Below are positions 10,642 to 56,115 of a stretch of 64,000 bases of DNA, piece by piece. Below the pieces are notes generated by a model, which saw only the letters and a program-made list of their open reading frames with translations, had not been told where the DNA came from and ran no database searches. Both the position numbers and the translations under genes were made by a program. The DNA lies in the IMG/VR virus record IMGVR_UViG_3300029319_000032, positions 165-64,164 of that record, one strand, 5' to 3'. Within the stretch, counting starts at the first letter, position 1, and the number at the start of each line of letters is the position of its first letter. Origin of the DNA: a virus. Its lineage: Duplodnaviria > Caudoviricetes.

Positions 10642-10650
10642 GAGAGATAT

Positions 10651-26589: not shown

Positions 26590-26706
26590 AAAAAGCTTGC
26601 GAGAATGCCCCTAGAAGCTCGTAAAATAAATTCTTTGATATAACTATCGCCTAAATATTGAACGTTTTGTGAGGGTATCATTAAATGCCTAATTCTGATT
26701 TTATAC

Positions 26707-26734
26707 AAAAAACCCCTCAAAAAGAGGGGCTTTT
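26707..26734. terminator. Bidirectional intrinsic terminator between the convergent late and replication operons
   Basis: CCCCTC-AAAAA-GAGGGG stem flanked by an A-run and a T-run. Confidence 0.75.
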
Positions 26735-26755
26735 CGTTGGTTTTAGTGTATTCTT

Positions 26756-27181
26756 TTAGCCCATATAGTCTTCTACTAATGAAATTACTTTCATTTTTTT
26801 GTCCAAAGGTGTAGAATCAGGACCAGTATCAAATCGTTTTGTATTTACACCAGTTTGGGGTGAATAGTTATTATCCTTGATTCTTAGATGTTTATATTTT
26901 TTTAGAAACTGTTTATAGAATTTTAATTCAACAGCATCTGATTCGTGTTTTTTAGGGTCAAACATTTCATCGCTACGATATACAAAGTATTCTAATTCTC
27001 TAAATATATCTTCAGGTGTTCTAAAATACACCTCAGGATTATCATGCCACTTTGGGTTTTCACCCCAAGAACCATCTTCAAATTGAACAAGTCCACTGTT
27101 AGCATTTCCAAATAAATACAAAACACCACACGCTTCTTCAAACATTTCTTTCATTATTTTTATATTTTCTTTATTTTTCAT
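26756..27181 (-). CDS. Hypothetical protein with its own early-type promoter
   Basis: SD GGAGG before ATG at 27181; TTGACA at 27247-27242. Confidence 0.65.
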   Translation of the reverse strand: MKNKENIKIMKEMFEEACGVLYLFGNANSGLVQFEDGSWGENPKWHDNPEVYFRTPEDIFRELEYFVYRSDEMFDPKKHESDAVELKFYKQFLKKYKHLRIKDNNYSPQTGVNTKRFDTGPDSTPLDKKMKVISLVEDYMG

Positions 27182-27278
27182 ATCAACCTCCTGGGTTTTA
27201 GTGTGAATATTACATACAACGTTATGAATCTCTAAAACAAATGTCAAGAAATTTCTTTAAGTGTTGATATTGTTGGAC

Positions 27279-28628
27279 TTAATCGGAGTAGAGCTCGTTT
27301 AAACGGTCTCTAAATTTTTGCTTTGCTTGTTCAGGTGTGTCTAGTATTGATGCACTATCACCGTGATAACCCACATCAAACTTACAAGTTGTTCCATACC
27401 TGTTTTTGGCTATAATAATCTGTTGCCCAAACTCTCCATGTTCAGCTTGCTCATATTCATATACATATGGATAATAGTTAAAGATTACGATTTCTGCATC
27501 TTGCTCAAGATTACCAGACTCAGCAAGGTCGCTGAGCCTTGGAATCTTATCTACACGATGCTCTATGTTACGATTTAGTTGAGAGACTAATATAACAGAA
27601 CAATCAAGTTCTTTTGCAAGCCATTTATATCTTCTTGTCACTTCGGCGATACGATGTCTGACATCTCTATTATCACGCTGTGAAAATTCAATAAAACCTA
27701 TGTGGTCATCAATGATTACATCAGGTCTTATCTTTTTGGCTTCTTGAATGCCTTCATCTAGACCTCTTAAATTATCAAATAAATGAAGCGATTTGTAATA
27801 CTTTTTTATAAAATCTAAACCTTTTTCTATTTCTTCTCTATGTTCTGATGCATTGTTACGCATTTGTTTGTTTGGTACGGTAGTATGCATTGCTAAAAAC
27901 TTTTTAACAATCTCTACTCTTGGCATTTCTCTACTAATAAACATAACCTTTTTACCATCAAGTATCATATTTTTGGTCACATTAAGAGCTAAAGTACTTT
28001 TACCATTTCCAGGTCTACCAGCAATAATAGATATTTCACCTTTGGTCATACCAACAATAGCTTTATCAATAGAAGCAATACCAGTTTGTACTAAATTCTT
28101 TTTTGCAAAGATAGATTGTATCAGCTCATCATCAAGTCCTTCCATAGACTGATGCTCCATTTTAATCATATCATTGAACTTCTCTGATATTTTACCTAAA
28201 TAATCAATGTCTGATGACACATCTTTATATGATGTATCTTTTTCTATTCTGTCTTTGAAACCTACAATGCGTTTCCATAGTTGTCTTCTTACAAACAAGT
28301 CATAAATTGTTTTACAGTGTGTTTTAAATGTTGCTTCTGTTATGATGTCATTTTGTAGACCAGAAACATAGTAGGCAAGCTTATGACCTTTTTCTCCTAG
28401 AAAGTTTGATACCGTAGCTACATCTATATCTTTGTTTGATTCGTGTAAATAATACATAGCTCCCCAAATATGCTGGTGGTCATCCATGTAAAACACTTTG
28501 CTGGTAGTAATAAAGCTTAACGCTTCTTGCATTTTTTCTGGGTTTCTAAGTACACAACCTAAAACTTGTTTTTCAGATACGCCACTATACATCTTTGACA
28601 CATCTATATTTTTATCAAAAGCATCCAT
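27279..28628 (-). CDS. dnaB: DnaB-like replicative helicase
   Basis: Walker A GRPGNGKS, SQLNR, DLAESGNLEQDA, AKNRYG, and an N-terminal DnaB-like domain. Confidence 0.92.
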   Translation of the reverse strand: MDAFDKNIDVSKMYSGVSEKQVLGCVLRNPEKMQEALSFITTSKVFYMDDHQHIWGAMYYLHESNKDIDVATVSNFLGEKGHKLAYYVSGLQNDIITEATFKTHCKTIYDLFVRRQLWKRIVGFKDRIEKDTSYKDVSSDIDYLGKISEKFNDMIKMEHQSMEGLDDELIQSIFAKKNLVQTGIASIDKAIVGMTKGEISIIAGRPGNGKSTLALNVTKNMILDGKKVMFISREMPRVEIVKKFLAMHTTVPNKQMRNNASEHREEIEKGLDFIKKYYKSLHLFDNLRGLDEGIQEAKKIRPDVIIDDHIGFIEFSQRDNRDVRHRIAEVTRRYKWLAKELDCSVILVSQLNRNIEHRVDKIPRLSDLAESGNLEQDAEIVIFNYYPYVYEYEQAEHGEFGQQIIIAKNRYGTTCKFDVGYHGDSASILDTPEQAKQKFRDRLNELYSD

Positions 28629-28979
28629 CTAATCCTCCTTTAAATCTGGTGGTAAGCTATCTAATCTCTTACGCTCTATCATTAATTTGTTCTCATACTT
28701 CTTATTCTCATTCCTTAATATACCTATAAAATAATATACATCATAGCCTTTTCCAGCTAAATCTTTGCGTTCCCAAATAGTAATACAATGTTTGATTACT
28801 TCGTCGTCAATGTCTTGACAAGCTTTAAGTAAAGTATAGGTAGTTAGGTCATCTAACGCTGATATGAAGAGGTCGTTTAAACGCTCTAATGTATTATCAT
28901 CTACATTCTTTTGTAGCCTTGCTATCATCTTTGGATAGTTTTTCAAGGCATTGGACCAGCCACAAGCTGGACATCTCAT
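28629..28979 (-). CDS. Possible replication accessory/helicase-loading protein
   Basis: CPACG zinc knuckle and YYFIGILRN (DnaD-domain-like); immediately upstream of the helicase. Confidence 0.35.
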   Translation of the reverse strand: MRCPACGWSNALKNYPKMIARLQKNVDDNTLERLNDLFISALDDLTTYTLLKACQDIDDEVIKHCITIWERKDLAGKGYDVYYFIGILRNENKKYENKLMIERKRLDSLPPDLKED

Positions 28980-29395
28980 TTACGCTCCTTACAAGGAAGT
29001 TCTTCTGGGCATTCACGTTTATCTAAAGGAACACGCTTACCTAAGAACTCCCTCATAGGAACTTTCCCTTTTGGCAATGTATAGTACCTCCAAGGTCTTT
29101 CGCATCGTGGACAACGATAAGGCTGGAACTTTGACTTATTGCTGTAAGATACTTCATTCTTCTTACGCTTCTCTGATTCAATGTATTCATCATCAAACCA
29201 CTCATCATCAAAGTAATGCTCTAAGGTCTCTTTAGAGTATAGAGACTCATAGATATATAACCAGACTTTTTCTGCGAATTTTTTAATCATCGCAAACTTC
29301 ACAATTAGGATTAACTTGTGAAAGTTGCATATCTTTTTGTTTCTGTTCTTTGTCCATTGCTTCAATAATCTTTTTAGCAATGTCCATAAGAACAT
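28976..29395 (-). CDS. Hypothetical protein with CPRC zinc motif (start uncertain)
   Basis: ORF track; CPRC motif. Confidence 0.45.
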   Translation of the reverse strand: MFLWTLLKRLLKQWTKNRNKKICNFHKLILIVKFAMIKKFAEKVWLYIYESLYSKETLEHYFDDEWFDDEYIESEKRKKNEVSYSNKSKFQPYRCPRCERPWRYYTLPKGKVPMREFLGKRVPLDKRECPEELPCKERK

Positions 29396-29415
29396 TGATT
29401 TCGTTTGTGCTTAAA

Positions 29416-29619
29416 TCAATTTTCATAGCTATACTCTGCTACTACTTTACCCTGAGGTGTTGATATATGATTAGTTTTAATAGGATGTCCTTCATTACGT
29501 AAATCCCATATTCTAGCACTTAAACGAAAACAACCAAACTTTTCTAGGGCTGATATTGGTGTAATACGCTCACCATTTTTTAAAGCCACTAGAATCATAT
29601 CATTCTGTGTTTTGTTCAT
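29416..29619 (-). CDS. Helix-turn-helix DNA-binding protein (HTH_39-like)
   Basis: ITPISALEKFGCFRLSARIWDLRNEGHPI pattern. Confidence 0.7.
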   Translation of the reverse strand: MNKTQNDMILVALKNGERITPISALEKFGCFRLSARIWDLRNEGHPIKTNHISTPQGKVVAEYSYEN

Positions 29620-29896
29620 CTTCTGTTTTCTCCTTATCACCATCTAGTTCTGTAAGAACATTGTTAATGTAGTTGTTAGCCAAAAACCTTTTTTCATTAA
29701 GTTGTTGTTCTAACATTTGTGTTTCTTGAGCTATTTGATTAGCTCTAACGTAAGCCATTTGTCCTTCATTACTTAAGTCGCTCAAGTAGAACTTAATTTC
29801 TTCTCCATCACGACTAATGACTTGCTCACGCTCTTGTGGTTCTTGTATAGCATCTAATTCTTGTTTTGCCATATCAAGCTCGTTTACTTTTCCCAT
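29600..29896 (-). CDS. Hypothetical coiled-coil protein
   Basis: SD GGAGG; in operon. Confidence 0.6.
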   Translation of the reverse strand: MGKVNELDMAKQELDAIQEPQEREQVISRDGEEIKFYLSDLSNEGQMAYVRANQIAQETQMLEQQLNEKRFLANNYINNVLTELDGDKEKTEDEQNTE

Positions 29897-29898
29897 TG

Positions 29899-30171
29899 TT
29901 ATTCCTCCATGTTTAAATCGGCAAAATTTGCTCCATTATAACACTCAGAGCATATACCTGTTTTTTCTTCTTCTATGAATGAGTTTCCGAAGGGAAGGGC
30001 TGTACAGCAAGAGCTTTGCCAATCCCTGTCATCACACATTTCACACTTGTCAATAGAGATAGTAGGGCTATCTCCTTTCTTGCTATTTCCACAATAAGAA
30101 CATTGAATTTCAGGAACATACATTCCGTACTTATCACTTTTTTCTTTTTGCACAAATTCTAAATAGCTCAT
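29899..30171 (-). CDS. Cys-rich zinc-finger protein
   Basis: CSYC, CEMC, SCC and CSEC motifs. Confidence 0.6.
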   Translation of the reverse strand: MSYLEFVQKEKSDKYGMYVPEIQCSYCGNSKKGDSPTISIDKCEMCDDRDWQSSCCTALPFGNSFIEEEKTGICSECYNGANFADLNMEE

Positions 30172-30500
30172 TCTTCTTTATCTTTAAATTGTTTAATCAT
30201 CGCAATTAAACTTAAGTAATAATCCTGAGACATAATAGCTAAATCTTCACCTCTGTCTTCACCTACAAATTGTACGTGTATTTCTTTTGTTGGTTTTAAG
30301 TGTTTAGCTAATACTTTTCTTTTCTTACATTGAACATAGATATTATCTTCAATAACCATATCTACTTCTTGAGCTAGACCTCTTGACCTACCATCACTAC
30401 CCCAAGTTCTTTCTGCTTTTAAATCAAATCCTTGTGCTTTTTCAACACACCTTCTTTCGTAATACGTTCCTCTTAATTTATTTTTCGCTGGCATTGTCAA
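30168..30500 (-). CDS. PD-(D/E)XK Holliday-junction-resolvase-like nuclease
   Basis: GTYYER...VDMVI...VQCK pattern. Confidence 0.6.
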   Translation of the reverse strand: MTMPAKNKLRGTYYERRCVEKAQGFDLKAERTWGSDGRSRGLAQEVDMVIEDNIYVQCKKRKVLAKHLKPTKEIHVQFVGEDRGEDLAIMSQDYYLSLIAMIKQFKDKEE

Positions 30501-30738
30501 ACCTTCCTTTCCAGTATTGCATCATCCACAGTTTATCTTTCTTATTATGTCTAATATCCATTCCAGCAAATATCCACCAAGCTCCATACTTTGTTCTAAA
30601 TTCTTCTGCTGTCTCTTTTCTCCATTTGTCGTTTTGAACTACTAGACTTTTTCTTTGTTGTAAATGCTTTGGCACATTTTTTTCTTTTCGTTGTTTCCAA
30701 GCTAATTCTCTTTTGTTTAAATCCATCAAACTCCCCAA
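30478..30738 (-). CDS. Hypothetical protein
   Basis: ORF track; overlaps neighbours in operon fashion. Confidence 0.5.
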   Translation of the reverse strand: MGSLMDLNKRELAWKQRKEKNVPKHLQQRKSLVVQNDKWRKETAEEFRTKYGAWWIFAGMDIRHNKKDKLWMMQYWKGRFDNASEK

Positions 30739-30878
30739 TCGCTTATGTCGTGCTCATCTTCAGATAATCTAATTATCTCATTGTGTCTTCTCTCTTCGTC
30801 ATCAATACGTTTGCGTAGCCATAAATATCCTTTGTAAAAAAAATATAATGTTGTTGCTACTACAATAAAATCAATCAT
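30726..30878 (-). CDS. Small membrane protein (50 aa, MIDFIVVATTLYFFY...)
   Basis: SD AAGGAG; N-terminal hydrophobic helix; below the ORF-track cutoff. Confidence 0.5.
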   Translation of the reverse strand: MIDFIVVATTLYFFYKGYLWLRKRIDDEERRHNEIIRLSEDEHDISDWGV

Positions 30879-30967
30879 GTTTACTCCTTTCAAGTGATGC
30901 GTGGGAATCTAGTATGAGATGTAGTAGATGAGCTAAGAGGTATAAGACCCCCACGCTAAGTTATTAA

Positions 30968-31489
30968 TTAAAACGGCAAATCATCATCCTCCATCACTGC
31001 TTCTTTGCCTCTTGCTTCTGCTTTTAACACCATTTTAACTCTAGGTGTTTTCATATCGTTTCCTTCTCTTCCTACCCACTCTTCTATAATTACTTCCACA
31101 TCAAATAGAAAGCGTTTAAACGACTCTAAGTCAAGCTCTGGTAATATTAGTTTATCATCCTTTTTTTGAACCATATCCATCATATCACAAAGAGCGTGAT
31201 AACCAGCATTACTTCCCATATCACTTTGTAGTTGTGGGTATTTTGCTGGGTCAGGTTTCTTAAATCTAAAAAACCCTTTGTGTTTAACATCCTTACCTTC
31301 AATATCAAACACTGGTTCATAGATGTCAGCTAAAAACTTACCACTAACTACTATGTCTTTCTTTACATTAAGGTCTTTAACCAAAACCTTCTCATATTTA
31401 CCTGGCTTAACAGAACTACCACCACCCTGTGATTTTGGTTCGTACCAAGCATCTTGTCCAAGTATATTATCTAAATCAGTATTATCCAT
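30968..31489 (-). CDS. Single-stranded DNA-binding protein (putative)
   Basis: Acidic C-terminal tail DDDLPF; follows the SSAP gene. Confidence 0.6.
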   Translation of the reverse strand: MDNTDLDNILGQDAWYEPKSQGGGSSVKPGKYEKVLVKDLNVKKDIVVSGKFLADIYEPVFDIEGKDVKHKGFFRFKKPDPAKYPQLQSDMGSNAGYHALCDMMDMVQKKDDKLILPELDLESFKRFLFDVEVIIEEWVGREGNDMKTPRVKMVLKAEARGKEAVMEDDDLPF

Positions 31490-32096
31490 TTTTTACCTCC
31501 TTCTTAGGTTTCTTCTTTTGTAGCTGTTCTACATAGCCATCAAAATTATTTGTGTTTAGTTTTTTACTTCTTATTGCTACTTCAATGCTTTCAACAAAAG
31601 CTTTGTCTCTACCTTCTAACAATGTCATCAAGTAATCATATTGCTCTTTTGATATTTCTTGTGGTTTGTCATCTTCTGGCAAATCTTCGCCCCTATAAAT
31701 ATAAAGACCAAGACCAAATAAAGCAAAACATTTTACCAAACATCTTTTGATAGAGTTGTTAATCTGTGTTGCTGTTGGTTCTTTGATAGCTTTATTATAG
31801 TTATCCATAACAGCATGAACTTCTGTTCTTGTAACACCTTCAATAGTTACAGATACTTTAACAAAACATCCACTATCTGTTATCATATATGGAGCTTTAT
31901 GCCATCCATCCCAATCATTTTTGCTTACAGGTATATCAAATTCGTGAGTTTCCCAGGTAGCATCTGGGTATACAGACAGAACATATTGAACTGCATCACT
32001 CCAAGATAGATAGTCATAATTACCTTTCTTCTCTTTAAACTCATTTACATTTATTTTATTAAGTGTTTCAAACACTGATAGTTTTTTCGTTGCCAT
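31482..32096 (-). CDS. Sak3/DUF1071-like single-strand annealing protein
   Basis: YLSWSDA...INNSIKRCLVKCFALFGLGLYIY-GEDLP signature. Confidence 0.8.
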   Translation of the reverse strand: MATKKLSVFETLNKINVNEFKEKKGNYDYLSWSDAVQYVLSVYPDATWETHEFDIPVSKNDWDGWHKAPYMITDSGCFVKVSVTIEGVTRTEVHAVMDNYNKAIKEPTATQINNSIKRCLVKCFALFGLGLYIYRGEDLPEDDKPQEISKEQYDYLMTLLEGRDKAFVESIEVAIRSKKLNTNNFDGYVEQLQKKKPKKEVKNG

Positions 32097-32307
32097 CGTA
32101 TTCCTCCTCATATAGTTCTATAAATTTATCTACACTCACCCAGCTATCTGAATTACCTTCGTGTACCATTGGTATTCCAGCTGTATCTGGTCTCATCGTA
32201 AAGTCTCCGTAATTATTGCTATTCGCCCAATCCATTAACATAAGGGCAAAGTCCTCTGACCTCACAATATTTTTCACATTTTTTTCCGTTCCAAGTTTCT
32301 TCATCAT
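32068..32307 (-). CDS. Hypothetical protein
   Basis: SD GGAGG; in operon. Confidence 0.5.
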   Translation of the reverse strand: MMKKLGTEKNVKNIVRSEDFALMLMDWANSNNYGDFTMRPDTAGIPMVHEGNSDSWVSVDKFIELYEEEYDGNEKTISV

Positions 32308-33097
32308 TACACCTCCTCGGTATTGTGTTAGTATTTAGATGTTCTAAAAGTGCATCTCTCTTGCTTGTAAAATACGAAACAATCTCTTTATTGTCAACCA
32401 TTGGTATGTTAACAAAATAAATATTTTTATCTACCCCTCTGGCAATAGCTGAATGTGTACCAGCATCTCTGACATTCATTTGTAGTTTCATTGCTTTAAC
32501 TTTATATCCCTTTTTCTCTAATAAATATCTATACATATTTACTTGATACAACCAGTCTCCAAAGTCTGCCTTGCTCTCATCTCTCTGGAACACTTTAACC
32601 TGTTTAAACGTTCCCTTCCTACCCCAAGCTCCTGACTTCTTGTATCGTTCACCTGATGGGTCTGGCATCATAACGTGCGTCATTCCTAATACTTTAGATG
32701 CTTTGAAACTACCTGTGTTTTTATAATCAATAAGGGTTTCTGTATCTTTATCATAAAAGTCTAAAATACCTGTAATATCTAATCCTTCTAGTTTTTCTTC
32801 TTGTATTGCATTGTCATCAAGCTCTTGGCTTTCTAAGTGCAAGTGATGTATAGTTCCCATAACAGCAAATGCCATATCTTGTGGGTCTACATAATATTCT
32901 TCAGTTCTTTTTAGATAAGCCTCACAGGTTCCAGATAATAGCTCTGTTGTGCTTGGAGGTCTGTCGTTTGGTCTCTGGTCTGACATCATCTTTAATGTGG
33001 CTACACTCATACAACGCTCTGACATACGACATTCTTTTAGACATCGTTTAAACGTAATTTGTTCTCCATCTGGACAAATAAATCCTACTGCACTCAT
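32219..33097 (-). CDS. PD-(D/E)XK (Cas4-like) exonuclease
   Basis: GTIHH, GILD...IDYKNT, QVNMY and C-terminal CxxYCxxxxxC; partner of the SSAP. Confidence 0.75.
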   Translation of the reverse strand: MSAVGFICPDGEQITFKRCLKECRMSERCMSVATLKMMSDQRPNDRPPSTTELLSGTCEAYLKRTEEYYVDPQDMAFAVMGTIHHLHLESQELDDNAIQEEKLEGLDITGILDFYDKDTETLIDYKNTGSFKASKVLGMTHVMMPDPSGERYKKSGAWGRKGTFKQVKVFQRDESKADFGDWLYQVNMYRYLLEKKGYKVKAMKLQMNVRDAGTHSAIARGVDKNIYFVNIPMVDNKEIVSYFTSKRDALLEHLNTNTIPRRCNDEETWNGKKCEKYCEVRGLCPYVNGLGE

Positions 33098-33257
33098 AAA
33101 AACTCCTTTTTTAAATTTTTCTGGAGTAGGTCGCCAGACCAATGTATTTGCAAAATTTAATTAACAAAGGTGAACAGGGTTAAAACCTGCAACACTCCTT
33201 TTAAGTGCTATTAAATTTTTATCTACAATATCTACTCCAGACTGAAAATCTATGTAT

Positions 33258-33350
33258 AAAAAATAAAAGAGGCAAGAAATAAATCTTGCCCCTTTCCACA
33301 CACACTAAGGAGTTCAATGAAAACATCATTGAAGTTGTCGAATTGACAAC
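33258..33350 (-). ncRNA. Predicted ~93-nt small RNA with an anti-Shine-Dalgarno seed
   Basis: Promoter upstream, two perfect hairpins, unpaired CUCCUUAGUGUGUGUGG, then an intrinsic terminator (GGCAAGA/UCUUGCC plus U-tract). Confidence 0.65.
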
Positions 33351-33355
33351 GCTTT

Positions 33356-33384
33356 AGTTTAACACCATTACTCTATGGTGTCAA
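33356..33384 (-). promoter_or_regulatory. Strong sigma70-type promoter (TTGACA-17-TAAACT, extended -10 TG)
   Basis: Direct match on the minus strand; no minus-strand ORF follows before the terminator. Confidence 0.75.
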
Positions 33385-33389
33385 ATCAA

Positions 33390-33596
33390 TTATAAATTAT
33401 TTTTTAGATTAATTAGTCTATGACCTTTACTCATATCAAACTCTATATCATAGTCTTGCATCAGTCTCACTATCGCATCTTTTTCGTTTTTAGCTACATA
33501 GTGATAGGTAAATGAGTTTTGCTTTTTTGGTATAAAGAATACAAAACTTGCAAGTTTCCCACTATCAATCTTCTTATATGTTTCAATATCTAGCAT
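33390..33596 (-). CDS. Hypothetical early protein
   Basis: SD GAGG; TTGACC upstream at ~33662. Confidence 0.55.
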   Translation of the reverse strand: MLDIETYKKIDSGKLASFVFFIPKKQNSFTYHYVAKNEKDAIVRLMQDYDIEFDMSKGHRLINLKNNL

Positions 33597-33686
33597 CGTT
33601 AAATCCTCATATTGTTATAGTTATAGTCTCTCGTTAATAATATACATTAGTTTTATGGTCAAAGTCTACTATTATTTTGATGCCGT

Positions 33687-33932
33687 TTAAACGCTCTTTG
33701 CGTTATAGATTTTTTGAATTTCTAACAGCTGTTCAGTGAATGCTTTTATAGTATATGGTATATCAATATATACTTTTTTAAATCCTTTGTCATCTGTTTC
33801 CATTACATAAAACAGCTCTTGCTTTACAATCGGTATTGCATTGCTATCTAGATGGTCTTGTAGTTTTTTTACTTTACCTTCAACAGCATCATTATAGTTT
33901 TTGTTTTGTAGTTCTATATTTTTTTCTTTCAT
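33687..33932 (-). CDS. Hypothetical early protein
   Basis: SD GGAGG; stop codon lies inside a GTTTAAAC palindrome. Confidence 0.6.
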   Translation of the reverse strand: MKEKNIELQNKNYNDAVEGKVKKLQDHLDSNAIPIVKQELFYVMETDDKGFKKVYIDIPYTIKAFTEQLLEIQKIYNAKSV

Positions 33933-34195
33933 TCTGCTACCTCCTGTTCAAAAAGATTACCTTGTTGATGGTCGTAAATTGCATCCCAGCTTTCCCAAGT
34001 GTCTTTTACCTCTTTCTCCACGAACTCAATCTCTTTTAACTCTTTGATAGTCTTACATTCTTCAATCTTATTTACATTTTGCCACATTTCCCTTAAGACC
34101 ATATCATCTCCAACTTCAATCATATTTAAATAGTCATTGAAAAATTCATACTTAGCATTTCTTTTTAATTGTTCTATTAGTTTTATTTTTTTCAT
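33929..34195 (-). CDS. Hypothetical early protein
   Basis: SD GGAGG. Confidence 0.6.
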   Translation of the reverse strand: MKKIKLIEQLKRNAKYEFFNDYLNMIEVGDDMVLREMWQNVNKIEECKTIKELKEIEFVEKEVKDTWESWDAIYDHQQGNLFEQEVAE

Positions 34196-34358
34196 TTTCT
34201 TTTCCTCCTAATAGCTGATTGATTGTCATTTAATTCAATAAATTCATATCCAATTTGTTTAAGTTTTTCTATGTATTTTAATTTAACTTTTGGAAAAAAA
34301 TTACCAAATCTTTTTATTGTTTTGTGGTACGCCAGTGCTTTTTTTGAATTGTCTTCTT

Positions 34359-34607
34359 TCATTCTCTTAGTCCTTTCATTTCATCCCAAGTTTGTATATA
34401 CGAACAATAGCTACAAGCTTTCTTACCTCGTTTAAACGCTGTCTTCGTCATAGTGTTAATTCTGTCTATCAAGGTTATTGCTAACTCTTTACGACCTCTG
34501 ATGATGTCTGCTGTACCATCAGTGATTAAATCTATCTCAGTTTCTGATACAAGCTCTTCATCTAAAAAATCTCTTATTGTATTTAAAATCTCTTTATTCG
34601 TCATCAT
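34359..34607 (-). CDS. Hypothetical early protein
   Basis: SD GGAGG; CSYC motif. Confidence 0.55.
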   Translation of the reverse strand: MMTNKEILNTIRDFLDEELVSETEIDLITDGTADIIRGRKELAITLIDRINTMTKTAFKRGKKACSYCSYIQTWDEMKGLRE

Positions 34608-34950
34608 CTACCTCCTCTTTTGTGGTATCGTTTAAACTACTTATCATATCTATCAAATTGTTTTTCATATTGATGAAAGTATCTGGGTCTTTAAAATCAA
34701 TAGATAAACCTCTTTCTTGAACACTACGCAATCTTGCTGGAACGACTTCAGTATCATTACAAAAATTACAGCATCTTCCGTTTGCCAGTGGCTCAGCATT
34801 GTGTCCATTTGTCCATATTGCTACGCCATTTTTGTACAACACATCAAGGGCATCTCCACAAAGCACGCAGAATTTTTTTGCTTTGCCTACAACTTTTTCG
34901 TTCCACTCTCCGTATCCAGTACGGCTATAAAATTTTATCTTATCGCTCAT
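34594..34950 (-). CDS. Hypothetical zinc-binding early protein
   Basis: CVLC...GHNAEP...GRCCNFCN; own promoter TTGACA-18-TAAACT at ~35032. Confidence 0.65.
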   Translation of the reverse strand: MSDKIKFYSRTGYGEWNEKVVGKAKKFCVLCGDALDVLYKNGVAIWTNGHNAEPLANGRCCNFCNDTEVVPARLRSVQERGLSIDFKDPDTFINMKNNLIDMISSLNDTTKEEVDDDE

Positions 34951-35028
34951 TTCAAACTCCTCTGTTAGTTTTAGTGTTTAGCTAGCTTGCTAGCTCTTTG
35001 TTAGTTTAGCTAGTATGTTAGCAACTTG

Positions 35029-35328
35029 TCAAGCATTTTCTCTTAATTTGCTAATTCTATAATCAAACTCTTCTTCTGTTTCGTTTAAACGCTCTAAGTG
35101 TTTATGGTCATCATAGATTTCTCTAGATAGTTTTCTAACTCTACCTTCTCTGTTATCCTCAGTTCTAAAAACAAACCAGCGTTTAACTTCAGTGGTCTGC
35201 CAAGCCATAGCAATAGCCTCATTTATATCTTCATCAGATAAAAATCCCCTTATTTCAATCTCATATTCACAAGTCCATAATCTAGTTTCTTTTATTTTGT
35301 GTGTTTTGCTCATCATCTCCTCCTTCAT
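35029..35328 (-). CDS. Hypothetical early protein
   Basis: ORF track; SD present (true start probably ~35313). Confidence 0.55.
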   Translation of the reverse strand: MKEEMMSKTHKIKETRLWTCEYEIEIRGFLSDEDINEAIAMAWQTTEVKRWFVFRTEDNREGRVRKLSREIYDDHKHLERLNETEEEFDYRISKLRENA

Positions 35329-35491
35329 CTTTAAATATTACAATGGTTGGTATTACATTCAGTACTTGTTTTTTTGCTTTCTTCAGCAATAAATCACCAG
35401 CACTCATAGTGTGTTCAAATGCCCAGTTAGTGTGTCCATACTTATCTCTGCACATCTCATCAATATAATCAGTAATAAATTTAAATTTCAT
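35282..35491 (-). CDS. Hypothetical early protein
   Basis: SD GGAGG. Confidence 0.55.
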   Translation of the reverse strand: MKFKFITDYIDEMCRDKYGHTNWAFEHTMSAGDLLLKKAKKQVLNVIPTIVIFKDEGGDDEQNTQNKRN

Positions 35492-35979
35492 ACTTCCTCC
35501 TTTGTTATGTTATATAAAAATGTTGGTGGTACAAATACCTCTTGTTCCTGTTCCCAATAAACTAAAAAGTCAAGAGCGTTTAAACGACCTGTGTAAACTA
35601 CTGGTTGTTTGTCTTTCTTGACCTTTGCAAACCTAGTTGCAAACCAATAAGCTCTGTTCTTATCCAGTGTCCAGCTAAAGCCGTGTTCATACTCTCCAAG
35701 AGTACCTCTGTATAAGAGTATCTCATCGTGTTCCATCAGTATATCTTCGTATGTTTCATACTCTTTTGTGTTCATACTAAATCCTATATCATCGTAGTGA
35801 TAAGTTAGTATGTCCTGTAAATCTTTGTTCGTCATCATCGTGTGAACATTATCAATAGCTGTGTAGTCTTGTCTGAAATACTGCCAAAACTTTGATGGGG
35901 CTATCTTGTTCTTAGCTAGGTCTTGAACCATCATAGCTATGCCACCCTGTTGGTAGTAGTTGTTTATTATGTCTTCCAT
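35488..35979 (-). CDS. Hypothetical early protein (LYRG...SWT...A-WFA...E-EV motif, ADP-ribosyltransferase-like pattern)
   Basis: An R...S...ExE arrangement is visible; own promoter and SD GGAGG. Confidence 0.45.
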   Translation of the reverse strand: MEDIINNYYQQGGIAMMVQDLAKNKIAPSKFWQYFRQDYTAIDNVHTMMTNKDLQDILTYHYDDIGFSMNTKEYETYEDILMEHDEILLYRGTLGEYEHGFSWTLDKNRAYWFATRFAKVKKDKQPVVYTGRLNALDFLVYWEQEQEVFVPPTFLYNITKEEV

Positions 35980-36069
35980 ATACCCTCCGTGTGTGTTAGT
36001 GAGTTGCTTGACATTAGCCAATCCTACAACCAATGTCAAGCTATTTATTTGACCTCGTTTAAACGATGC

Positions 36070-36381
36070 CTACAACCATATTGAACATTGATTAGTTTGT
36101 AGCTTGAAGATTTTTCTCCAAGCTCTAATCATTAAGTTCCCTACAATCGTTATTACACTTATCCAAGTAAAGAATAACAAGATGCTTTCCAGAAATATAT
36201 GTCCAGCATTTGTTAAGTATGTGTAGTCGTGATGACTTAATAACAGCACTAAAAATACACATACCATTTGAGAGTAGATAAATACGTTCATCAACACTCT
36301 GTTTGTATTTGTTAAAGTTTTACTTAAATCGTTTCTTAATTCCATTGAGTTTTTGCTCATACCTGTTGTTTTATTATTCAT
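36070..36381 (-). CDS. Early membrane protein (2 TM)
   Basis: SD GGAGG before ATG at 36381; two hydrophobic segments. Confidence 0.55.
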   Translation of the reverse strand: MNNKTTGMSKNSMELRNDLSKTLTNTNRVLMNVFIYSQMVCVFLVLLLSHHDYTYLTNAGHIFLESILLFFTWISVITIVGNLMIRAWRKIFKLQTNQCSIWL

Positions 36382-36394
36382 ATTGCCTCCTTTG

Positions 36395-37306
36395 TTAAGC
36401 ACTAATATATCCACTTCTTGACCAGTTCCAATGTTCTCTATCTTGAACAATGTCTAGGTAAGCTGTCTGAAAGCTCTTTGCTTTTTCATTAACGTAGTAA
36501 GATGGGTCGTATCTATGACCTCTGCTGTCTTTACGCTCTTTCTCATAAGCTTGATAGCTGTCAATCAAGTTGCCTAACATACCAGCAAATCTTGACTGCT
36601 CATCATAAGAGCCCTGTCCTATTACATTGATGCAAAGCTGTCTAGCTTTTCTAAACTTCTTCTTGATAATCACTGGGTCGTTTAAACGGCTCTTGTACAT
36701 TGCTGATAATTTTGCCCAGAACTCTTCTTTGATTTGCTTATCGTCTTTCCACTTCAGATTATTTTCTAGGTGTTGTCTTCTCTCGCTTGCTTTGTCTTGA
36801 GCTGTCATATACGGCATATCTTCTTTCAAAGATAAGTGTAAGTATTTGACCACTAATCCATTTCTATTTATTGCTTTTTTAAGACCAGTAATACTTTGTA
36901 AGCCTCTGATGTTTCTACCAAAAGTATGTGTAGAATAAGAGTAAGAACTTTTACCACATATAGTAGCTGTGTATTCTCTGCCTCCGTGTGCTCCTCTATG
37001 TCTAAGCCAATCCTCTCTATACCACAATGGTTTACCATCTTTAAGTACTAATACAACATCATCTTTGTTAATAGAGATGGTCTCATACCAGTTATGACTA
37101 CGACCTCGTAGCTGTCTCCACTCTGCATCCTCTTGAGCAATAACAAACACGATACCTTCTTTTGATATGGTGTCGTTTAAACGGAGCTCATTGTCTTGCA
37201 ATTTGTTCCAATCTATTCCTAGTTTTGCTCCAAGATTTTTAAACCTTCTTAACTGGCGATTAGCATTCCAATGGCTCAGTTTTAAGTTGTTAATTGTTTT
37301 ATTCAT
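36395..37306 (-). CDS. Hypothetical early protein (303 aa)
   Basis: Promoter TTGACA-17-TAGTAT and SD GGAGG upstream. Confidence 0.75.
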   Translation of the reverse strand: MNKTINNLKLSHWNANRQLRRFKNLGAKLGIDWNKLQDNELRLNDTISKEGIVFVIAQEDAEWRQLRGRSHNWYETISINKDDVVLVLKDGKPLWYREDWLRHRGAHGGREYTATICGKSSYSYSTHTFGRNIRGLQSITGLKKAINRNGLVVKYLHLSLKEDMPYMTAQDKASERRQHLENNLKWKDDKQIKEEFWAKLSAMYKSRLNDPVIIKKKFRKARQLCINVIGQGSYDEQSRFAGMLGNLIDSYQAYEKERKDSRGHRYDPSYYVNEKAKSFQTAYLDIVQDREHWNWSRSGYISA

Positions 37307-37333
37307 AATACCTCCTAGTTTATGTGTTAGCTA

Positions 37334-37362
37334 ATACTATTAAATTCTAAAACAAGTGTCAA
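37334..37362 (-). promoter_or_regulatory. Early sigma70-type promoter
   Basis: TTGACA-17-TAGTAT; spacer motif shared with promoters at ~27247, ~36039 and ~38652. Confidence 0.65.
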
Positions 37363-37380
37363 GATTTTTTTTGACCTCGT

Positions 37381-37599
37381 TTAAACGCTCTCTCCCATTT
37401 GTTTCAGTTGTTTGTTTATTCCATCCAACATTATTTCTGCTTGTGTGTTTTCAGTTTCTAATTTAGCATACTCTTGACTTTCTTCATCATAATATCTTCC
37501 ATCAAAATCCTCAAACTCTGTTTCCATTATTCTCTTGTTGCATTGTATCGTAGTCTCGCAACTCTTTTTTATGCTCATTACTATTGTTTTGTAGTCCAT
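37381..37599 (-). CDS. Hypothetical early protein
   Basis: SD GGAGG; ends within a GTTTAAAC palindrome. Confidence 0.6.
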   Translation of the reverse strand: MDYKTIVMSIKKSCETTIQCNKRIMETEFEDFDGRYYDEESQEYAKLETENTQAEIMLDGINKQLKQMGESV

Positions 37600-37627
37600 A
37601 TTATCCTCCTCTCGTTTAAACGCTCTC

Positions 37628-38173
37628 TTACAACAGCTTAGTGCCTACTCCAAATTTATCTTCTACTAACTCATTGATTTTTTTGACTAAATCTCTGTCA
37701 AACAGATAGGCATTACCAACTAATGGTCTGGTAATAGTGTTGTAGTCTCTGAAAAATAAGTCAGCCTCATCCATTAGTTTTATTGTACTACCTATAACAT
37801 CACTCATACTATCAAACTCTCCATTATTAGCGTAAAATCCAATAACATAATATCCTTCCATATCCTTATTAAATCCTCGCTTTTTGTCGTGAGCCCACTG
37901 CCAGCTGTCTGGCTCTTTTACCAAGTGAAATCCAGCTGTTAGCTCTCTGTCATAAAAAGGTATTTGTTTTACTTTGTTTTCTTCACCAGTAATAGCATCG
38001 TAGTTTGCTAAGTCTGGGCTATAAGCAAATAAATGTTGATTAGCCCAAGGGTGCCCTGGAGGTAAAGCTACATAACCACAGCCCCATCCATTTTTATTTG
38101 TTTCTTGTTTTCTAATAGTCCAGTAGTAAGTTGTACCATCTGCTTTTGTTTCTTTTATCCATCTTTCTTTCAT
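37628..38173 (-). CDS. Hypothetical early protein (GWGCGYVALPPGHPW motif)
   Basis: SD GGAGG; motif type common in phage early proteins. Confidence 0.65.
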   Translation of the reverse strand: MKERWIKETKADGTTYYWTIRKQETNKNGWGCGYVALPPGHPWANQHLFAYSPDLANYDAITGEENKVKQIPFYDRELTAGFHLVKEPDSWQWAHDKKRGFNKDMEGYYVIGFYANNGEFDSMSDVIGSTIKLMDEADLFFRDYNTITRPLVGNAYLFDRDLVKKINELVEDKFGVGTKLL

Positions 38174-38194
38174 ATTGTCCTCCTTAGAGCTCGT

Positions 38195-38590
38195 TTAAAC
38201 GCTCTGTGTTTTATTTTTCTTTGTTCCGTTTTCTTTTCTACCAAACATCCAAGCTTTACTAAAATTGTTCAAGCTGTCCAGTGTCTCTGGGTCTGTTGGT
38301 AAAAAAGACATAAGAAATCTTTTTTGTTCTGCTGTTTGACCCCAAGCATCAACATTATTTATAACTGGTCGCATTGGGTTGCTCTCATCTCTTCCAGCAT
38401 CAGAGTAAAGCATATTTAAAGCCATCTCTGCATCTTCAGTTGTCATATTCAAAGTTATATTTCTTTTTGTAAGATGACAAAATATAGTTAAAGTTTTCTT
38501 TTCGTTTAACTCTTTGATAGCCTCTCTAGTGCTTTGTGCTCTTCCGTTGTAGTCTCTCAAAGCTTTTGTAAATCTTTTAGTTATTTTCAT
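38195..38590 (-). CDS. Hypothetical early protein
   Basis: SD GGAGG before ATG at 38590; ends within a GTTTAAAC palindrome. Confidence 0.65.
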   Translation of the reverse strand: MKITKRFTKALRDYNGRAQSTREAIKELNEKKTLTIFCHLTKRNITLNMTTEDAEMALNMLYSDAGRDESNPMRPVINNVDAWGQTAEQKRFLMSFLPTDPETLDSLNNFSKAWMFGRKENGTKKNKTQSV

Positions 38591-38888
38591 ACTGCCTCCT
38601 TTGTGTGTTTTGCAATATGTAGGAAATTTGCAAATTCTAAAGCCAATGTCAAGCAAAAAAATAAAAATATTTTAAAAAAGTTTTCATAGTATAAAAAAGC
38701 TCAGATGTCAAGAACTTTTTTTTTCTGGGTGATTTTGCTCCTCTATAAACGCCAGAGAATAGCCCTAGAACGCAATAAAATAAAAAAAAGGTCTTATGGT
38801 ATGCAAAAAATGTTTTGTCGTCTGAAACTTTGTTCAAATATTCCAGAATTTAGAGCTATAAAAAACACGCTGTTTAAACGCTGTTAAG

Positions 38889-38995
38889 TTATCCACAACT
38901 TATCCACATCATACTTATCCACAAGTTATCCACAAAGTTATTAACAAGTTATCCACATAAAAGTTATCCACATTTTATCCACAATTTGTGGAAAA
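38889..38995. repeat. DnaA-box array (7 perfect TTATCCACA plus 2 degenerate boxes)
   Basis: Perfect boxes start at 38889, 38900, 38915, 38926, 38949, 38964 and 38975; TTATTAACA at 38938; inverted TGTGGAAAA at 38987. Confidence 0.9.
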
Positions 38996-39032
38996 CTTCT
39001 AGACGCTGTTTAAACGCTCTGAAAAAAAGGGC

Positions 39033-39067
39033 AAAAAAAAAGGGCTATTTCTAGCCCTCTTTTTTTA
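39033..39067. terminator. Bidirectional intrinsic terminator flanking the DnaA-box array
   Basis: AGGGCTA-TTTC-TAGCCCT flanked by an A-run and a T-run. Confidence 0.75.
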
Positions 39068-39079
39068 GTTGGTCTTGTT

Positions 39080-39556
39080 TTAGAATGTAAAGCCAGCAAC
39101 ATCTTCTGGCATTACCCAACCGCAAGCTGTGTAAATAGATTTCATATTTTGAAAATCTTTTACGATGCTCTGGCTGGTGTGCTTGCCTCCGCCTATGACA
39201 TATTTTTTATCTGGGTCAATTTCTACAAGCTCTGTTGGTGTAGAAATATATGCTTTACCTTTAATCTGTCTTACTCTACAAGTTAAGCCGTAAGTTTCGA
39301 ACAAGCCGTTTAAACGCTCTCTTGTTGTTCGTGTGTTATAACCAGCTAAAGAGAACCAAAGCCCCTTGCTGATTTTATTGAATTGAGCTATCCAATTATT
39401 ATGAAGATACATATCTGATTGTACAGCGTTCTTCTCCATTTTTGAGCCGTTTAATACTGGCATCTCAATAGTTCTCACTTCTACTCTGGTATTATCCATT
39501 TTCATTGGCTTTTGATTTAAAAAAGCCGTTGCTGTTTTTAGTGTTATTTGTCTCAT
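39080..39556 (-). CDS. Hypothetical early protein (LHNNWIA...TRTTRERLN motif)
   Basis: SD GGAGG; coupled to the upstream ORF. Confidence 0.7.
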   Translation of the reverse strand: MRQITLKTATAFLNQKPMKMDNTRVEVRTIEMPVLNGSKMEKNAVQSDMYLHNNWIAQFNKISKGLWFSLAGYNTRTTRERLNGLFETYGLTCRVRQIKGKAYISTPTELVEIDPDKKYVIGGGKHTSQSIVKDFQNMKSIYTACGWVMPEDVAGFTF

Positions 39557-39777
39557 TATTTCACCTCCTGTGCTGTTTGTAATTCCTCTTCTAAATCCCA
39601 GAGCTTTAATAAGTCTGGGCTAATGCCAGCCTCTACTTCTAAAGGCTGTCCAATGGCTAAATCTCCGTTAATACAAATGTCTCTTTGCTCTTCTATTTTC
39701 CATTTTAAATTTTCTATATCTACTTTAATAATTCCTCTTCTGATATAGTCTAATTTTACTTGTCTTGAATAGGTCAT
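39556..39777 (-). CDS. Hypothetical early protein
   Basis: SD GGAGG; coupled. Confidence 0.6.
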   Translation of the reverse strand: MTYSRQVKLDYIRRGIIKVDIENLKWKIEEQRDICINGDLAIGQPLEVEAGISPDLLKLWDLEEELQTAQEVK

Positions 39778-39923
39778 TATTTCGCCTCCTGTCTTCTAGC
39801 TTTCGCTCTGTTTAAACGCTGTTTAATCTTCTTAGCGTCTCTGTTCTCTCTGGCTTGTCTGCCTTGCTCTGCTTGAGCCTCTAAGCCCTTGATTTGTCTC
39901 AAATTTAAGCCTGTATAATTCAT
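39777..39923 (-). CDS. Small basic early protein (48 aa, MNYTGLNLRQIKG...)
   Basis: SD GAGGAGG; TAATG coupling to the next gene; directly downstream of the hammerhead. Confidence 0.6.
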   Translation of the reverse strand: MNYTGLNLRQIKGLEAQAEQGRQARENRDAKKIKQRLNRAKARRQEAK

Positions 39924-39953
39924 AATACCTCCTCAGTATGTTTGTTAATTTAA

Positions 39954-40020
39954 GCCTAAGACTAGAGACGCCGTTTAAACGACGCCCCCAGTTTCGCCCT
40001 TGTGGGCTCGTCAGTTAGGC
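39954..40020 (-). ncRNA. Hammerhead ribozyme (type I)
   Basis: Minus strand reads GCCUAA-CUGACGA-GCCC(ACAA)GGGC-GAAA-stem III-GUC^UUAGGC: full catalytic core with three paired stems. Confidence 0.9.
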
Positions 40021-40857
40021 ATCCTCCCATTTTAGCTCTTCTGTGATGTTGCCGATGGTGTCGTCAAGGTTTTGCTTGCCGTTCACCTTCTCGTTATCAT
40101 TCACTAAACTAAAAAATTTGTCGATGCTAATAATAGCCTTTCCGTATTTTTTGCCTAGTTGAATATGATACTCTCCTTCACCACAGCATAAACAAGTTCT
40201 GCTTGTCATCTGCTCTATTCTCAAACGATTTGTATTAAATCCGTGGTCGCAATCGTTCTCTGTGCCGTGGCATACAACTTTTAAATTTCTATTCGTATCA
40301 CGGCGTAAGCCCTCAAGGTTTACCTGTCTAAGCGGAAATTTTCCGATAGTCTTAATGATGCCGTTTAAACGACGTTTAAGCTCTTCGCCAGCGTATGTAC
40401 TGGTTAGCTTGCCTTCAAGTCCGATGGTTCTCGCCATCTTGTCGAACGCTCCGCCTTTTCTGTGTCCGCTTTTGTTGTCGTCAATAGCGTGAATTAATTC
40501 GTGAGCTAGTGTGTCCAGAACCTCGACGCTGTTATCTTTTCCAGTCGTTGCGATGTTCATCTGAATAATATTCACAACTTCAGCTTTTGGGCTTGGGTTG
40601 TCTGCTGTTCCTCTGGTGTAAGCCGTTGGGTAGCATCTGCCTAGCGTCGTATGTCCGTGGGTCTTATTCGCTGTCTTCATCTCTGAAACATTGATACGGA
40701 TATTTTTCGGAACTTTAAAGCCGTGCGGTCTAAATACTTTGTCGCTTAGCTCTTGCGTCGCTTTTTCGAACCATTGCGTAACTGCTACGTCGTGGTTCAC
40801 TACTTTAAAGCCTCTAATCTTTTTTGCGTTTGGGGTCGCCACCGCTTGTTTATTCAT
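40015..40857 (-). CDS. SprT-like zinc metalloprotease domain protein
   Basis: TLAHELIHA...GH; C-terminal Cys cluster; first gene of the early operon. Confidence 0.65.
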   Translation of the reverse strand: MNKQAVATPNAKKIRGFKVVNHDVAVTQWFEKATQELSDKVFRPHGFKVPKNIRINVSEMKTANKTHGHTTLGRCYPTAYTRGTADNPSPKAEVVNIIQMNIATTGKDNSVEVLDTLAHELIHAIDDNKSGHRKGGAFDKMARTIGLEGKLTSTYAGEELKRRLNGIIKTIGKFPLRQVNLEGLRRDTNRNLKVVCHGTENDCDHGFNTNRLRIEQMTSRTCLCCGEGEYHIQLGKKYGKAIISIDKFFSLVNDNEKVNGKQNLDDTIGNITEELKWEDA

Positions 40858-40920
40858 TTTATTTCCTTTGTTTATGTGTGTTAAAATCATAAGACAATAT
40901 AACATATTTTACACTTTGTG

Positions 40921-54478: not shown

Positions 54479-54479
54479 T

Positions 54480-54929: not shown

Positions 54930-54939
54930 AGGGGATAAA

Positions 54940-55236: not shown

Positions 55237-55248
55237 TGAGGTTTACAG

Positions 55249-55937: not shown

Positions 55938-55952
55938 AGAATAGGAGATAAC

Positions 55953-56105: not shown

Positions 56106-56115
56106 GGAGAAGGAC

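Follow-up and report, generated by a model that had tools for sequence, protein, structure and literature searches.

Can a phage carry a small RNA gene whose product is aimed at the ribosome-binding regions of the phage's own early messages? The question is raised by the virus record IMGVR_UViG_3300029319_000032 (Duplodnaviria; Caudoviricetes), of which a stretch of 64,000 nucleotides (nt; positions 165 to 64,164, here called the window) was analysed. An initial annotation, made from the letters alone, placed a candidate small RNA (sRNA) on the minus strand at 33258-33384 and proposed that its unpaired seed is antisense to the Shine-Dalgarno (SD) regions of many early genes. At the level of sequence, the anatomy of this RNA gene, its conservation, the invariance of its seed, the lack of a conserved reading frame and a joint change of seed and leaders between lineages are established below. 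The explanation that we favour, by a little over an even chance, is an anti-leader RNA: it would pair with a few early messages close to promoters and repress them.

The window makes up nearly all of a single 64.2-kb contig with a G+C content of 33-38%. Structural genes occupy the plus strand at 1-26589, a minus-strand block runs from 41234 down to 26756, and a second, diverged set of late genes starts on the plus strand at 41586. The RNA gene lies within the minus-strand block. Upstream of it (41234-33390) are about 20 small genes, most of them without an assigned family, and downstream are the genes for a PD-(D/E)XK exonuclease, a Sak-type annealing protein and a DnaB-type helicase.

A small RNA gene on the minus strand

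When recomputed from the sequence, the promoter, the two hairpins, the unpaired stretch and the terminator were all found on the minus strand where the initial annotation had placed them (Table 1). The promoter scored 10/12 plus an extended TG in a promoter scan, with the -35 box TTGACA at 33384-33379, the TG at 33364-33363 and the -10 box TAAACT at 33361-33356. With a start predicted 6-7 nt past the -10 box and an end predicted in the U run, a short transcript of ~93 nt would be bounded by its own promoter and its own intrinsic terminator. The seed combines an anti-SD-like CUCCUU with a GU-repeat tail, and is unpaired in both the minimum free energy (MFE) and the centroid structures. The terminator hairpin (33296-33265) has 13 pairs, 5 of them G-C, and is followed by the U run. 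The fold is far more stable than expected from composition: the 95-nt RNA has an MFE of -34.0 kcal/mol compared to -15.98 +/- 2.93 kcal/mol for shuffled sequences (z -6.15, with 0/200 shuffles as good), and across fold runs the RNA of the window gave -33.8 to -34 kcal/mol with z between -6.2 and -7.2.

The only minus-strand open reading frame (ORF) over the RNA is a 46-amino-acid (aa) frame (33161-33301) that starts within the terminator. On the plus strand, a mini-ORF encoding MKTSLKLSN had been named as a possible expressed unit in place of the RNA. Among the relatives it reads as 7 different peptides of 3-10 aa, its frame and length shifting because of insertions and deletions in the loops, and the peptide is thus not conserved. 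No Rfam family matched the window at the gathering score, and a permissive search of 33050-33420 returned 16 sub-threshold matches, all far under their cut-offs, the best on the region being DapZ with 25.1 bits compared to a gathering score of 56.

Table 1. Coordinates of the RNA gene, its predicted targets and the neighbouring features in the window
Feature	Position	Strand	Remarks
sRNA promoter	33356..33384	minus	TTGACA, 17-nt spacer, TG-n-TAAACT
Predicted ~93-nt sRNA	33258..33350	minus	Hairpin 1, hairpin 2, unpaired seed, terminator
Hairpin 1 (GUUGUC / GACAAC)	33334..33350	minus	Folds
Hairpin 2 (UUCAAUGA / UCAUUGAA)	33313..33333	minus	Folds
Unpaired seed CUCCUUAGUGUGUGUGG (17 nt)	33296..33312	minus	Unpaired in MFE and centroid structures
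Intrinsic terminator	33258..33296	minus	13-bp stem, 6-nt loop, U run
Predicted target: leader and SD of 48-aa gene 39923	39928..39945	minus	13/13 paired, 2 G-U (39929-39941), -22.5 kcal/mol
Predicted target: leader and SD of 163-aa gene 35979	35981..35997	minus	-19.0 kcal/mol
Predicted target: leader and SD of gene 38590	38595..38613	minus	12/13 paired (38596-38608), -18.8 kcal/mol
Predicted target: leader and SD of 303-aa gene 37306	37311..37327	minus	-17.7 kcal/mol
Weaker predicted target: leader of SprT-like gene, if its start is 40857	40863..40881	minus	-16.0 kcal/mol
Weaker predicted target: leader of 141-aa gene 27181	27187..27210	minus	-15.8 kcal/mol
Strongest site: start region of 50-aa gene 30878	30882..30905	minus	-23.6 kcal/mol (duplex), -18.1 kcal/mol (cofold)
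Cassette promoter copies	27231-27248, 36023-36040, 37346-37363, 38636-38653	minus	CTTGACAYTTGNTTTAGA, 0-3 mismatches
68-aa protein gene	33390..33596	minus	Ends 6 nt before the sRNA promoter
Conserved structured 5' untranslated region	33118..33240	minus	Between terminator and exonuclease gene
PD-(D/E)XK-type exonuclease gene	32219..33097	minus	PHROG 2139, E 1.1e-17; first gene past the RNA

The RNA family and the invariance of the seed

About thirty relatives of this uncultured marine phage keep the RNA gene. In IMG/VR, 15 loci were reached via the exonuclease, and a degenerate terminator pattern gave 20 matches, 9 of which carry the RNA, the other 11 being the same hairpin in unrelated contexts; an exact 28-nt search of that database gave no match. 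A pattern combining seed and terminator matched 21 marine metagenome stretches. The window and its relatives yield 20 distinct promoter-to-terminator sequences, all of which retain the promoter, both hairpins, the unpaired seed and the terminator, and which fall into four seed types: A, as in the window (13 sequences), A', with a GU run shorter by 2 bases (3 sequences), B1, CUCCUUGUUAGAG (1 sequence), and B2, CUCCUUGUAGAAG (3 sequences). CUCCUU is common to all four types, and the tail is lineage-specific. In distant relatives (L012-L014) a promoter, a longer structured RNA, a terminator and the exonuclease gene are kept at the same place.

The structure is conserved together with the layout. 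The order hairpin, hairpin, open stretch, terminator was obtained in 6/6 folded variants (z -5.7 to -8.1), and a covariance model (R1) recognizes the 20 family members at E-values of 1e-13 to 1e-25. In the covariance-model alignment, which leans towards the model, 91.7% of the cells pair, compared to 47-58% with slid partners, and 6 pairs are changed on both sides, compared to 2.5 in shuffles. Hairpins 1 and 2 differ in sequence among A, A' and B: in the related lineages hairpin 1 consists of other sequences with the same pairing (6, 7 and 8 bp), and hairpin 2 has three pairs changed on both sides and a loop whose length varies by 2-3 nt among the relatives. For lineage B, single-sequence folds were used, since hairpin 1 is out of register there in both the MAFFT and the covariance-model alignments.

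Variation within a lineage was counted over 13 distinct 440-nt fragments of lineage A. No variable columns were found in the stems (0/28) or in the open seed (0/17), as compared to 4/10 in the loops, 8/8 in the centre of the promoter spacer, 29/122 in the neighbouring coding sequence and 9/17 just past the terminator. The terminator has 2/31 variable columns, and both changes (G-U to A-U) keep the pairing. An unpaired stretch that is invariant while its flanks vary points to a sequence-specific partner.

Seed and leaders differ together between lineages

The best evidence for a match between the seed and the leaders, as read from the sequences, is the contrast between lineages A and B. The seed continues as CUCCUU-AGUGUG in A and as CUCCUU-GUUAG in B, and the leader motifs fit seeds ending ...UUAGUGUG (A) and ...UUGUUAG (B). 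In lineage-A loci with at least 15 leaders, 2-5 leaders contain CACAC and 0-1 contain CAAGGAG; in lineage B, CACAC leaders number 1/24 and 0/8, and CAAGGAG leaders 9/24 and 2/8.

Seeds were ranked against 300 random 7-nt tails by the mean of the four best leaders per locus, leaving out the 4/19 loci having fewer than 8 leaders. Seed A was in the top 0-4.7% in 10/10 A loci, where B1 stood at 5-25% and B2 at 23-81%. Seed B1 was in the top 1.7-2.7% in 4/5 B loci, where seed A stood at 8-46%; swapped seeds rank as ordinary. For three orthologous promoter-proximal genes (163 aa, 303/319 aa and 48 aa), the cognate 14-nt seed pairs better in 6/6 comparisons. The leaders of the 35979 and 37306 orthologues changed along with the seed in lineage B, and seed A has a poorer pairing with the lineage-B orthologue of 39923. 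An internal gene with an identical leader in both lineages shows core-level pairing only. Covariation of seed and leaders in related genomes, which the initial annotation had named as a check on its proposal, is seen, as one evolutionary contrast.

Pairing of the seed with leaders in the window

Gene starts were taken from a home-made SD-based caller, which gave 18 early and 12 replication start regions (together the 30 of the minus-strand block) and 47 late ones, and these were compared with an 18-nt seed. The three pairings quoted in the initial annotation, at 38596-38608, 39929-39941 and 35985-35996, were reproduced exactly from the coordinates, the last being 12 bp with a 3-nt bulge or, ungapped, 11/12; the partial matches to the leaders of 37306, 27181 and 40857 are real as well (Table 1). 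Pairing over 12-15 bp that includes the SD is found at five leaders, and extended pairing is confined to four to six. The strongest site, at the start of gene 30878, is kept at -19.9 to -24.4 kcal/mol in 7/7 lineage-A loci and is weaker in 2 lineage-B loci.

A threshold of -17.5 kcal/mol was reached by 5/30 start regions of the minus-strand block, compared to 4/234 GGAG sites that are not at starts (2/40 in the minus-strand block and 2/194 in the late blocks). Early leaders thus score better than generic GGAG leaders, though by a small margin. The energy sum of the top five was equalled or beaten by 0.5% of permutations of the GU tail, by 0.7% of shuffled leaders and by 0/300 random 10-nt tails, and the match of seed and leaders within the window is, overall, moderately above chance. 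Mean gains on cofolding were -10.4 kcal/mol for early, -9.6 for replication and -6.8 for late start regions (early versus late, p 1e-4), and the extra energy due to the tail only was -5.7, -4.9 and -3.25, respectively (early versus late, p 0.007). With the core only, the SD energies were -8.2 and -9.1 in the minus-strand block compared to -6.3 for late genes, and the gap between early and late genes is partly due to the stronger SDs of the minus-strand block.

Leaders with a CA run are short and belong to genes that come first after a promoter. A promoter cassette, CTTGACAYTTGNTTTAGA, precedes four genes (38590, 37306, 35979 and 27181) and is followed by a -10 box and a short CA-rich leader; it has 6 matches in all, four of them on the minus strand, compared to 1.19 expected. 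CACAC leaders occur in 2/18 called early start regions, and in addition at 40857, which the caller missed and whose start was taken from the initial annotation, and at 27181, which is the last gene of the minus-strand block and lies within the replication block. The Pfam match of the 40857 gene to the SprT-like family is below the cut-off. The claim that many early genes are targeted was accordingly too broad, although the predicted targets do head operons.

Repeated elements were also observed around these starts. A palindrome, CGTTTAAACG, lies just upstream of the promoters or starts of at least 9 minus-strand genes between ~33600 and 39990, and repeated GTGGATAA units are present at ~38840-38950 on the minus strand, upstream of the ORF starting at 38837. 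The spacer of the sRNA promoter is itself palindromic (ACACC-N10-GGTGT, 33381-33362) and looks like a putative operator; its arms are kept among relatives and its centre is variable in 8/8 columns. Elsewhere in the window the palindrome ACAC-N8-14-GTGT was found 8 times compared to 5.35 expected, which is no enrichment.

The downstream leader and the neighbouring genes

Past the terminator lies a second conserved structure, a 5' untranslated region (5'UTR) in front of the exonuclease gene. Its closing helix, formed by 33240-33232 with 33129-33121, encloses two hairpins. Three of its 27 predicted pairs are changed on both sides, and in L012 the closing helix, as read from the sequence, is swapped for a different complementary pair. 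The region 33118-33240 had no Rfam match, and could serve the replication operon as a leader that binds a protein or acts as a sensor. Between 33258 and 33097 no promoter-like site (at least 9/12) was found in the window or in the relative L023, and in L020 the one weak site there (9/12) would start inside the 5'UTR structure. Since the structured leader is conserved and no promoter lies in between, it must be transcribed through the terminator. On this reading of the sequence, which the initial annotation had not considered, the sRNA doubles as the 5' part, cut short by termination, of the replication-operon leader. GAACUCCUU of the RNA has a 9-bp complementarity to the SD region of the exonuclease gene (33108-33100), whose duplex with the 18-nt seed has an energy of -10.1 kcal/mol.

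An antiterminator formed by CUCCUU and the 5' arm of the terminator was considered and rejected; it appeared in no fold, and is broken by a G-to-A change in most relatives. In two loci (L006:2743-3000 and L003:158-307), an additional ~150-260 nt follow the structured 5'UTR, ahead of the exonuclease start, and are flanked by an inverted repeat, ATAGGCGTAT ... ATACGCCTAT; loose ends that share this sequence were seen at 33108-33152 in one run of the RNA libraries described below. Nine IMG/VR phage contigs (L031, L034, L036, L038, L039, L043, L046, L049 and L050) have the terminator hairpin of the sRNA, GGCRAGATTWATTTCTTGCC, in another context, where a shared motif, TACTGGCAAAC-AAGGGAA, precedes it. 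This suggests a terminator module that may be common to a phage group or to a host.

The gene directly upstream of the sRNA promoter encodes a 68-aa protein and holds this position in every lineage examined, distant ones included. The end of this gene and the -35 box are 6 nt apart, so that the operon to which the gene belongs also stops at the terminator and has the RNA sequence as its 3' end. Eight homologues were aligned, at 33-93% identity. The AlphaFold2 model of the protein is confident, with a pLDDT of 85.5; no match was found in Pfam or PHROG, nor with Foldseek against the PDB at E <= 0.001, and its Atlas neighbours score at most 0.85, none of them named. One idea would be that the product is an RNA chaperone, or a regulator of the palindromic promoter.

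Transcript data and genome setting

In four aquatic RNA libraries, contigs matching 26500-41500 derive from relatives of the block at 90-99% identity. One of them extends from 33929 to its end at 33218 and another begins at 33289, and the listed pieces leave 33218-33100 unbridged. These contigs carry no strand, ends or level and may include DNA carry-over, so that no conclusion is drawn from cover or gaps.

The late-gene module is present in two diverged copies (1-18300 and 52700-64000) at a spacing of ~45.7 kb, with patches that are 76-97% identical. Because related contigs span 25-46 kb, the 64-kb contig may be longer than one genome unit, or may be a join of two strains. A blastn search of INPHARED with 33100-33700 gave no match, and tblastn with the terminase and DnaB found relatives at <=30% identity only. 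In bacterial genomes of 185,579 species, the RNA pattern had 0 matches and the exonuclease protein had 24 pattern matches, none of which was confirmed, though absence here is not proof. A Pfam scan of 10 proteins found no lysogeny domain (integrase or repressor).

Proposed mode of action and its alternatives

We hypothesize that a strong host-type promoter drives the synthesis of the ~93-nt RNA, which an efficient intrinsic terminator would end. The two 5' hairpins would stabilize the RNA and leave a stretch of 17 nt open, made up of the CUCCUU anti-SD mimic and the lineage-specific tail. At the first genes of several transcription units, this stretch would form 12-15 bp with the SD and the short leader upstream of it; the predicted targets are 39923, 38590, 37306 and 35979, with 40857 and 27181 as weaker ones. 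Ribosomes would thereby be kept from entering, and the messages would probably become open to decay; genes further along would be affected too, since the targets stand first in their operons. Those transcripts that read through the terminator would serve as the structured leader of the exonuclease-Sak-DnaB message, so that one promoter could both damp translation of the early cassettes and feed the replication genes. Production of the RNA, its pairing in the cell, its repressive effect and its timing are what we infer from the features described above.

A number of observations weigh against this explanation. The excess of strongly pairing starts is modest: permutations of the GU tail (n=210) bring a mean of 2.45 start regions to the -17.5 kcal/mol threshold, with 6% of them reaching 5, and shuffled leaders a mean of 2.69, with 10% reaching 5; GU repeats pair promiscuously. 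Four targets stand behind one duplicated cassette, so that their matches are essentially one event and not independent. The strongest site, that of gene 30878, is in the replication block and not at an early gene, and between early and replication start regions there is no difference (Mann-Whitney p 0.22). Of the trans-acting reading in the initial annotation, the non-coding minus-strand RNA gene, the invariant seed and the co-differing leaders hold good, whereas early-specific targeting is not supported. The lineage contrast, as the sequences give it, comes down to one split, A versus B; the loci of a lineage are related to each other, some being the same contig twice (L026 and L065 have identical figures), and seed B2 is not distinctive on its own loci (percentiles 0.12-0.16). 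In L012-L014 no evident CUCCUU/anti-SD stretch or leader motif was seen; as these relatives keep the layout without CUCCUU, the function that is conserved may be tied to the position and not to the seed. The caller was in error at one start or more (40857), and the sRNA transcript, its strand and its ends are predicted.

Some of these points are shared by an alternative that is possible, though we consider it unlikely: the RNA could be a terminated leader (attenuator) of the replication operon, with the promoter at 33384 serving exonuclease-Sak-DnaB and the short RNA a by-product without a role in trans. The hairpins and the terminator would then set the level of read-through, and CUCCUU would act in cis on the exonuclease SD, brought near via the long-range helix, or would be bound by a protein. 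A covarying structure in a region that has no promoter of its own (window and L023), or only a weak one (L020), fits this alternative, as do the 9-bp complementarity of GAACUCCUU to the exonuclease SD region and the distant relatives, in which promoter, structured RNA, terminator and exonuclease are retained but the seed is not the same. Many 5'UTR-derived short RNAs are also described in Pseudomonas phages (PMC10914365). However, no antiterminator fold was found, the MFE and centroid structures being the same, with the terminator formed, in 6/6 variants, and there is no Rfam sensing domain. A cis role leaves unexplained the invariance of the GU tail (0/17) and the joint lineage difference of the tail and distant leaders, and in L006 and L003 the exonuclease SD was replaced after the ~250-nt insertion while the seed stayed the same. 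The attenuator is in any case compatible with a role in trans and not exclusive of it. It is improbable that the RNA acts as a general anti-SD mimic, abundant enough to titrate the strong SDs of host and early phage messages and to shift translation towards late messages, whose SDs are weaker. In its favour, nothing in the open stretch but CUCCUU is shared by all four seed types, and SD pairing is stronger in the minus-strand block than at late genes; yet the invariance of the tail within lineages and its match to cognate leaders would remain unexplained, and pairing over 6-7 nt is weak (core only, about -7 to -8 kcal/mol).

Two further explanations appear very improbable. The put RNA of HK022 is a cis-acting processive antiterminator, and by analogy the hairpins could make the polymerase resistant to terminators. 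Such a role would suit the two conserved, covarying hairpins right past the start, which are followed after ~20 nt by a terminator and then by essential genes. The hairpins are, however, simple stems without conserved internal loops, their loops vary, there was no Rfam match (though the presence of put in that library was not checked), and neither the invariant open stretch nor the leader match is explained. The conserved unit might, with as little probability, be one of the plus strand or of the DNA, either the mini-ORF behind its SD or an inverted fossil leader cassette without RNA function. A leader-SD-ATG can indeed be read in every lineage, the ATG being kept 4-7 nt after AAGGAGT. Against this, the peptide is not conserved (see above), the only plus-strand promoter-like match near the site (9/12) is ~290 nt upstream of the mini-ORF, the conserved promoter and U run point along the minus strand, and a fossil cassette would not stay invariant where its flanks vary.

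The anti-leader RNA that we favour might be extended to an RNA-only early-to-replication switch in a lytic marine phage, with lineage-specific exclusion of superinfecting close kin. Terminated transcripts would then silence the early cassettes, and read-through transcripts would be the message of the replication genes. We regard this extension as doubtful. Maintenance of a quiescent state, which the initial annotation had offered beside the switch, is not borne out: no lysogeny domain was found in the 10 proteins scanned, and no relatives in the bacterial genomes.

Significance and comparison with known systems

The temporal control of lytic phages is usually ascribed to proteins, namely sigma and anti-sigma factors, modifiers of RNA polymerase and translational repressors such as T4 RegA. 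To our knowledge, there are only a few precedents for an RNA with such a role, and the phages concerned are temperate (c4 and P4 CI). A literature search found no such RNA described for a lytic phage, although supplementary tables of phage transcriptome papers, which were outside the search, could list comparable ones. If the favoured explanation is true, a conserved small RNA mirroring early leaders would add an RNA layer to lytic-phage temporal control. On the doubtful extension given above, it would also silence the early genes of superinfecting close kin and not those of the other co-circulating lineage. The natural A and B1 versions of seed and leaders are ready-made compensatory pairs. 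If several such cases hold, 'anti-leader' RNAs could be a general phage device.

The CI RNA of the satellite phage P4 is cut from an operon leader and pairs with repeated sites in P4's own early transcripts. The likeness to the RNA described here is that of a leader-derived small RNA directed at such repeated sites; CI, however, causes premature transcription termination as an immunity factor of the lysogen, and does not block ribosome entry. In Listeria, termination within a 5'UTR yields short, riboswitch-derived sRNAs that have a further role in trans. They share with this locus the order of promoter, structured leader, terminator and operon, in which the terminated product can itself regulate, but no ligand-binding domain or alternative fold is evident here. 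In six virulent Pseudomonas phages, 29 candidate non-coding RNAs derived from 5'UTRs have been described (PMC10914365); these have no assigned targets.

In Cluster K mycobacteriophages, a short tag with an SD core (SAS, with ESAS) is repeated upstream of the start codons of non-structural genes only, and several genomes contain a single copy in the opposite orientation; the authors leave open whether a phage RNA or a protein binds it (PMC3203893). The likeness is one of arrangement only, with tagged starts and a single inverted copy, which here is the seed of the RNA. The motif and the host are different: the 13-bp consensus of the paper is not found in the leaders here, which carry a CA-rich run and GGAG(G), and no RNA gene is described for SAS. 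Compared to SAS, the tag here is looser (a CA-rich leader plus GGAG) and is present at fewer genes, and it accompanies a promoter that is itself repeated.

Among known systems, the c4 RNA of phages P1 and P7 comes closest; in it, likewise, an exposed sequence is complementary to the ribosome-binding region of the phage's own message (here over 12-15 bp, at five leaders). c4 lies upstream of its target in the same operon, and the place of that target is taken here by the exonuclease gene. The RNA of this phage does not match it by sequence or structure model (no Rfam family at the gathering score). c4 has its seeds in loops, whereas the seed here is in a linker; c4 controls one antirepressor operon of a temperate phage, whereas the RNA here is predicted to act on four to six dispersed leaders; and c4 belongs to temperate-phage immunity, whereas no lysogeny genes were found here among the 10 proteins scanned. 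As described for the immI region, c4 is small and structured, and it blocks translation through exposed sequences that pair around the ribosome-binding site of the phage's own message; matched differences of RNA and target between the related phages lead to the heteroimmunity of P1 and P7 (PMC12197685). Matched differences of this kind are also seen between lineages A and B (one contrast). If the doubtful extension to a switch with exclusion of kin is true, lineages with matched seeds and leaders would form RNA-defined exclusion groups, comparable to P1/P7 heteroimmunity but without lysogeny.

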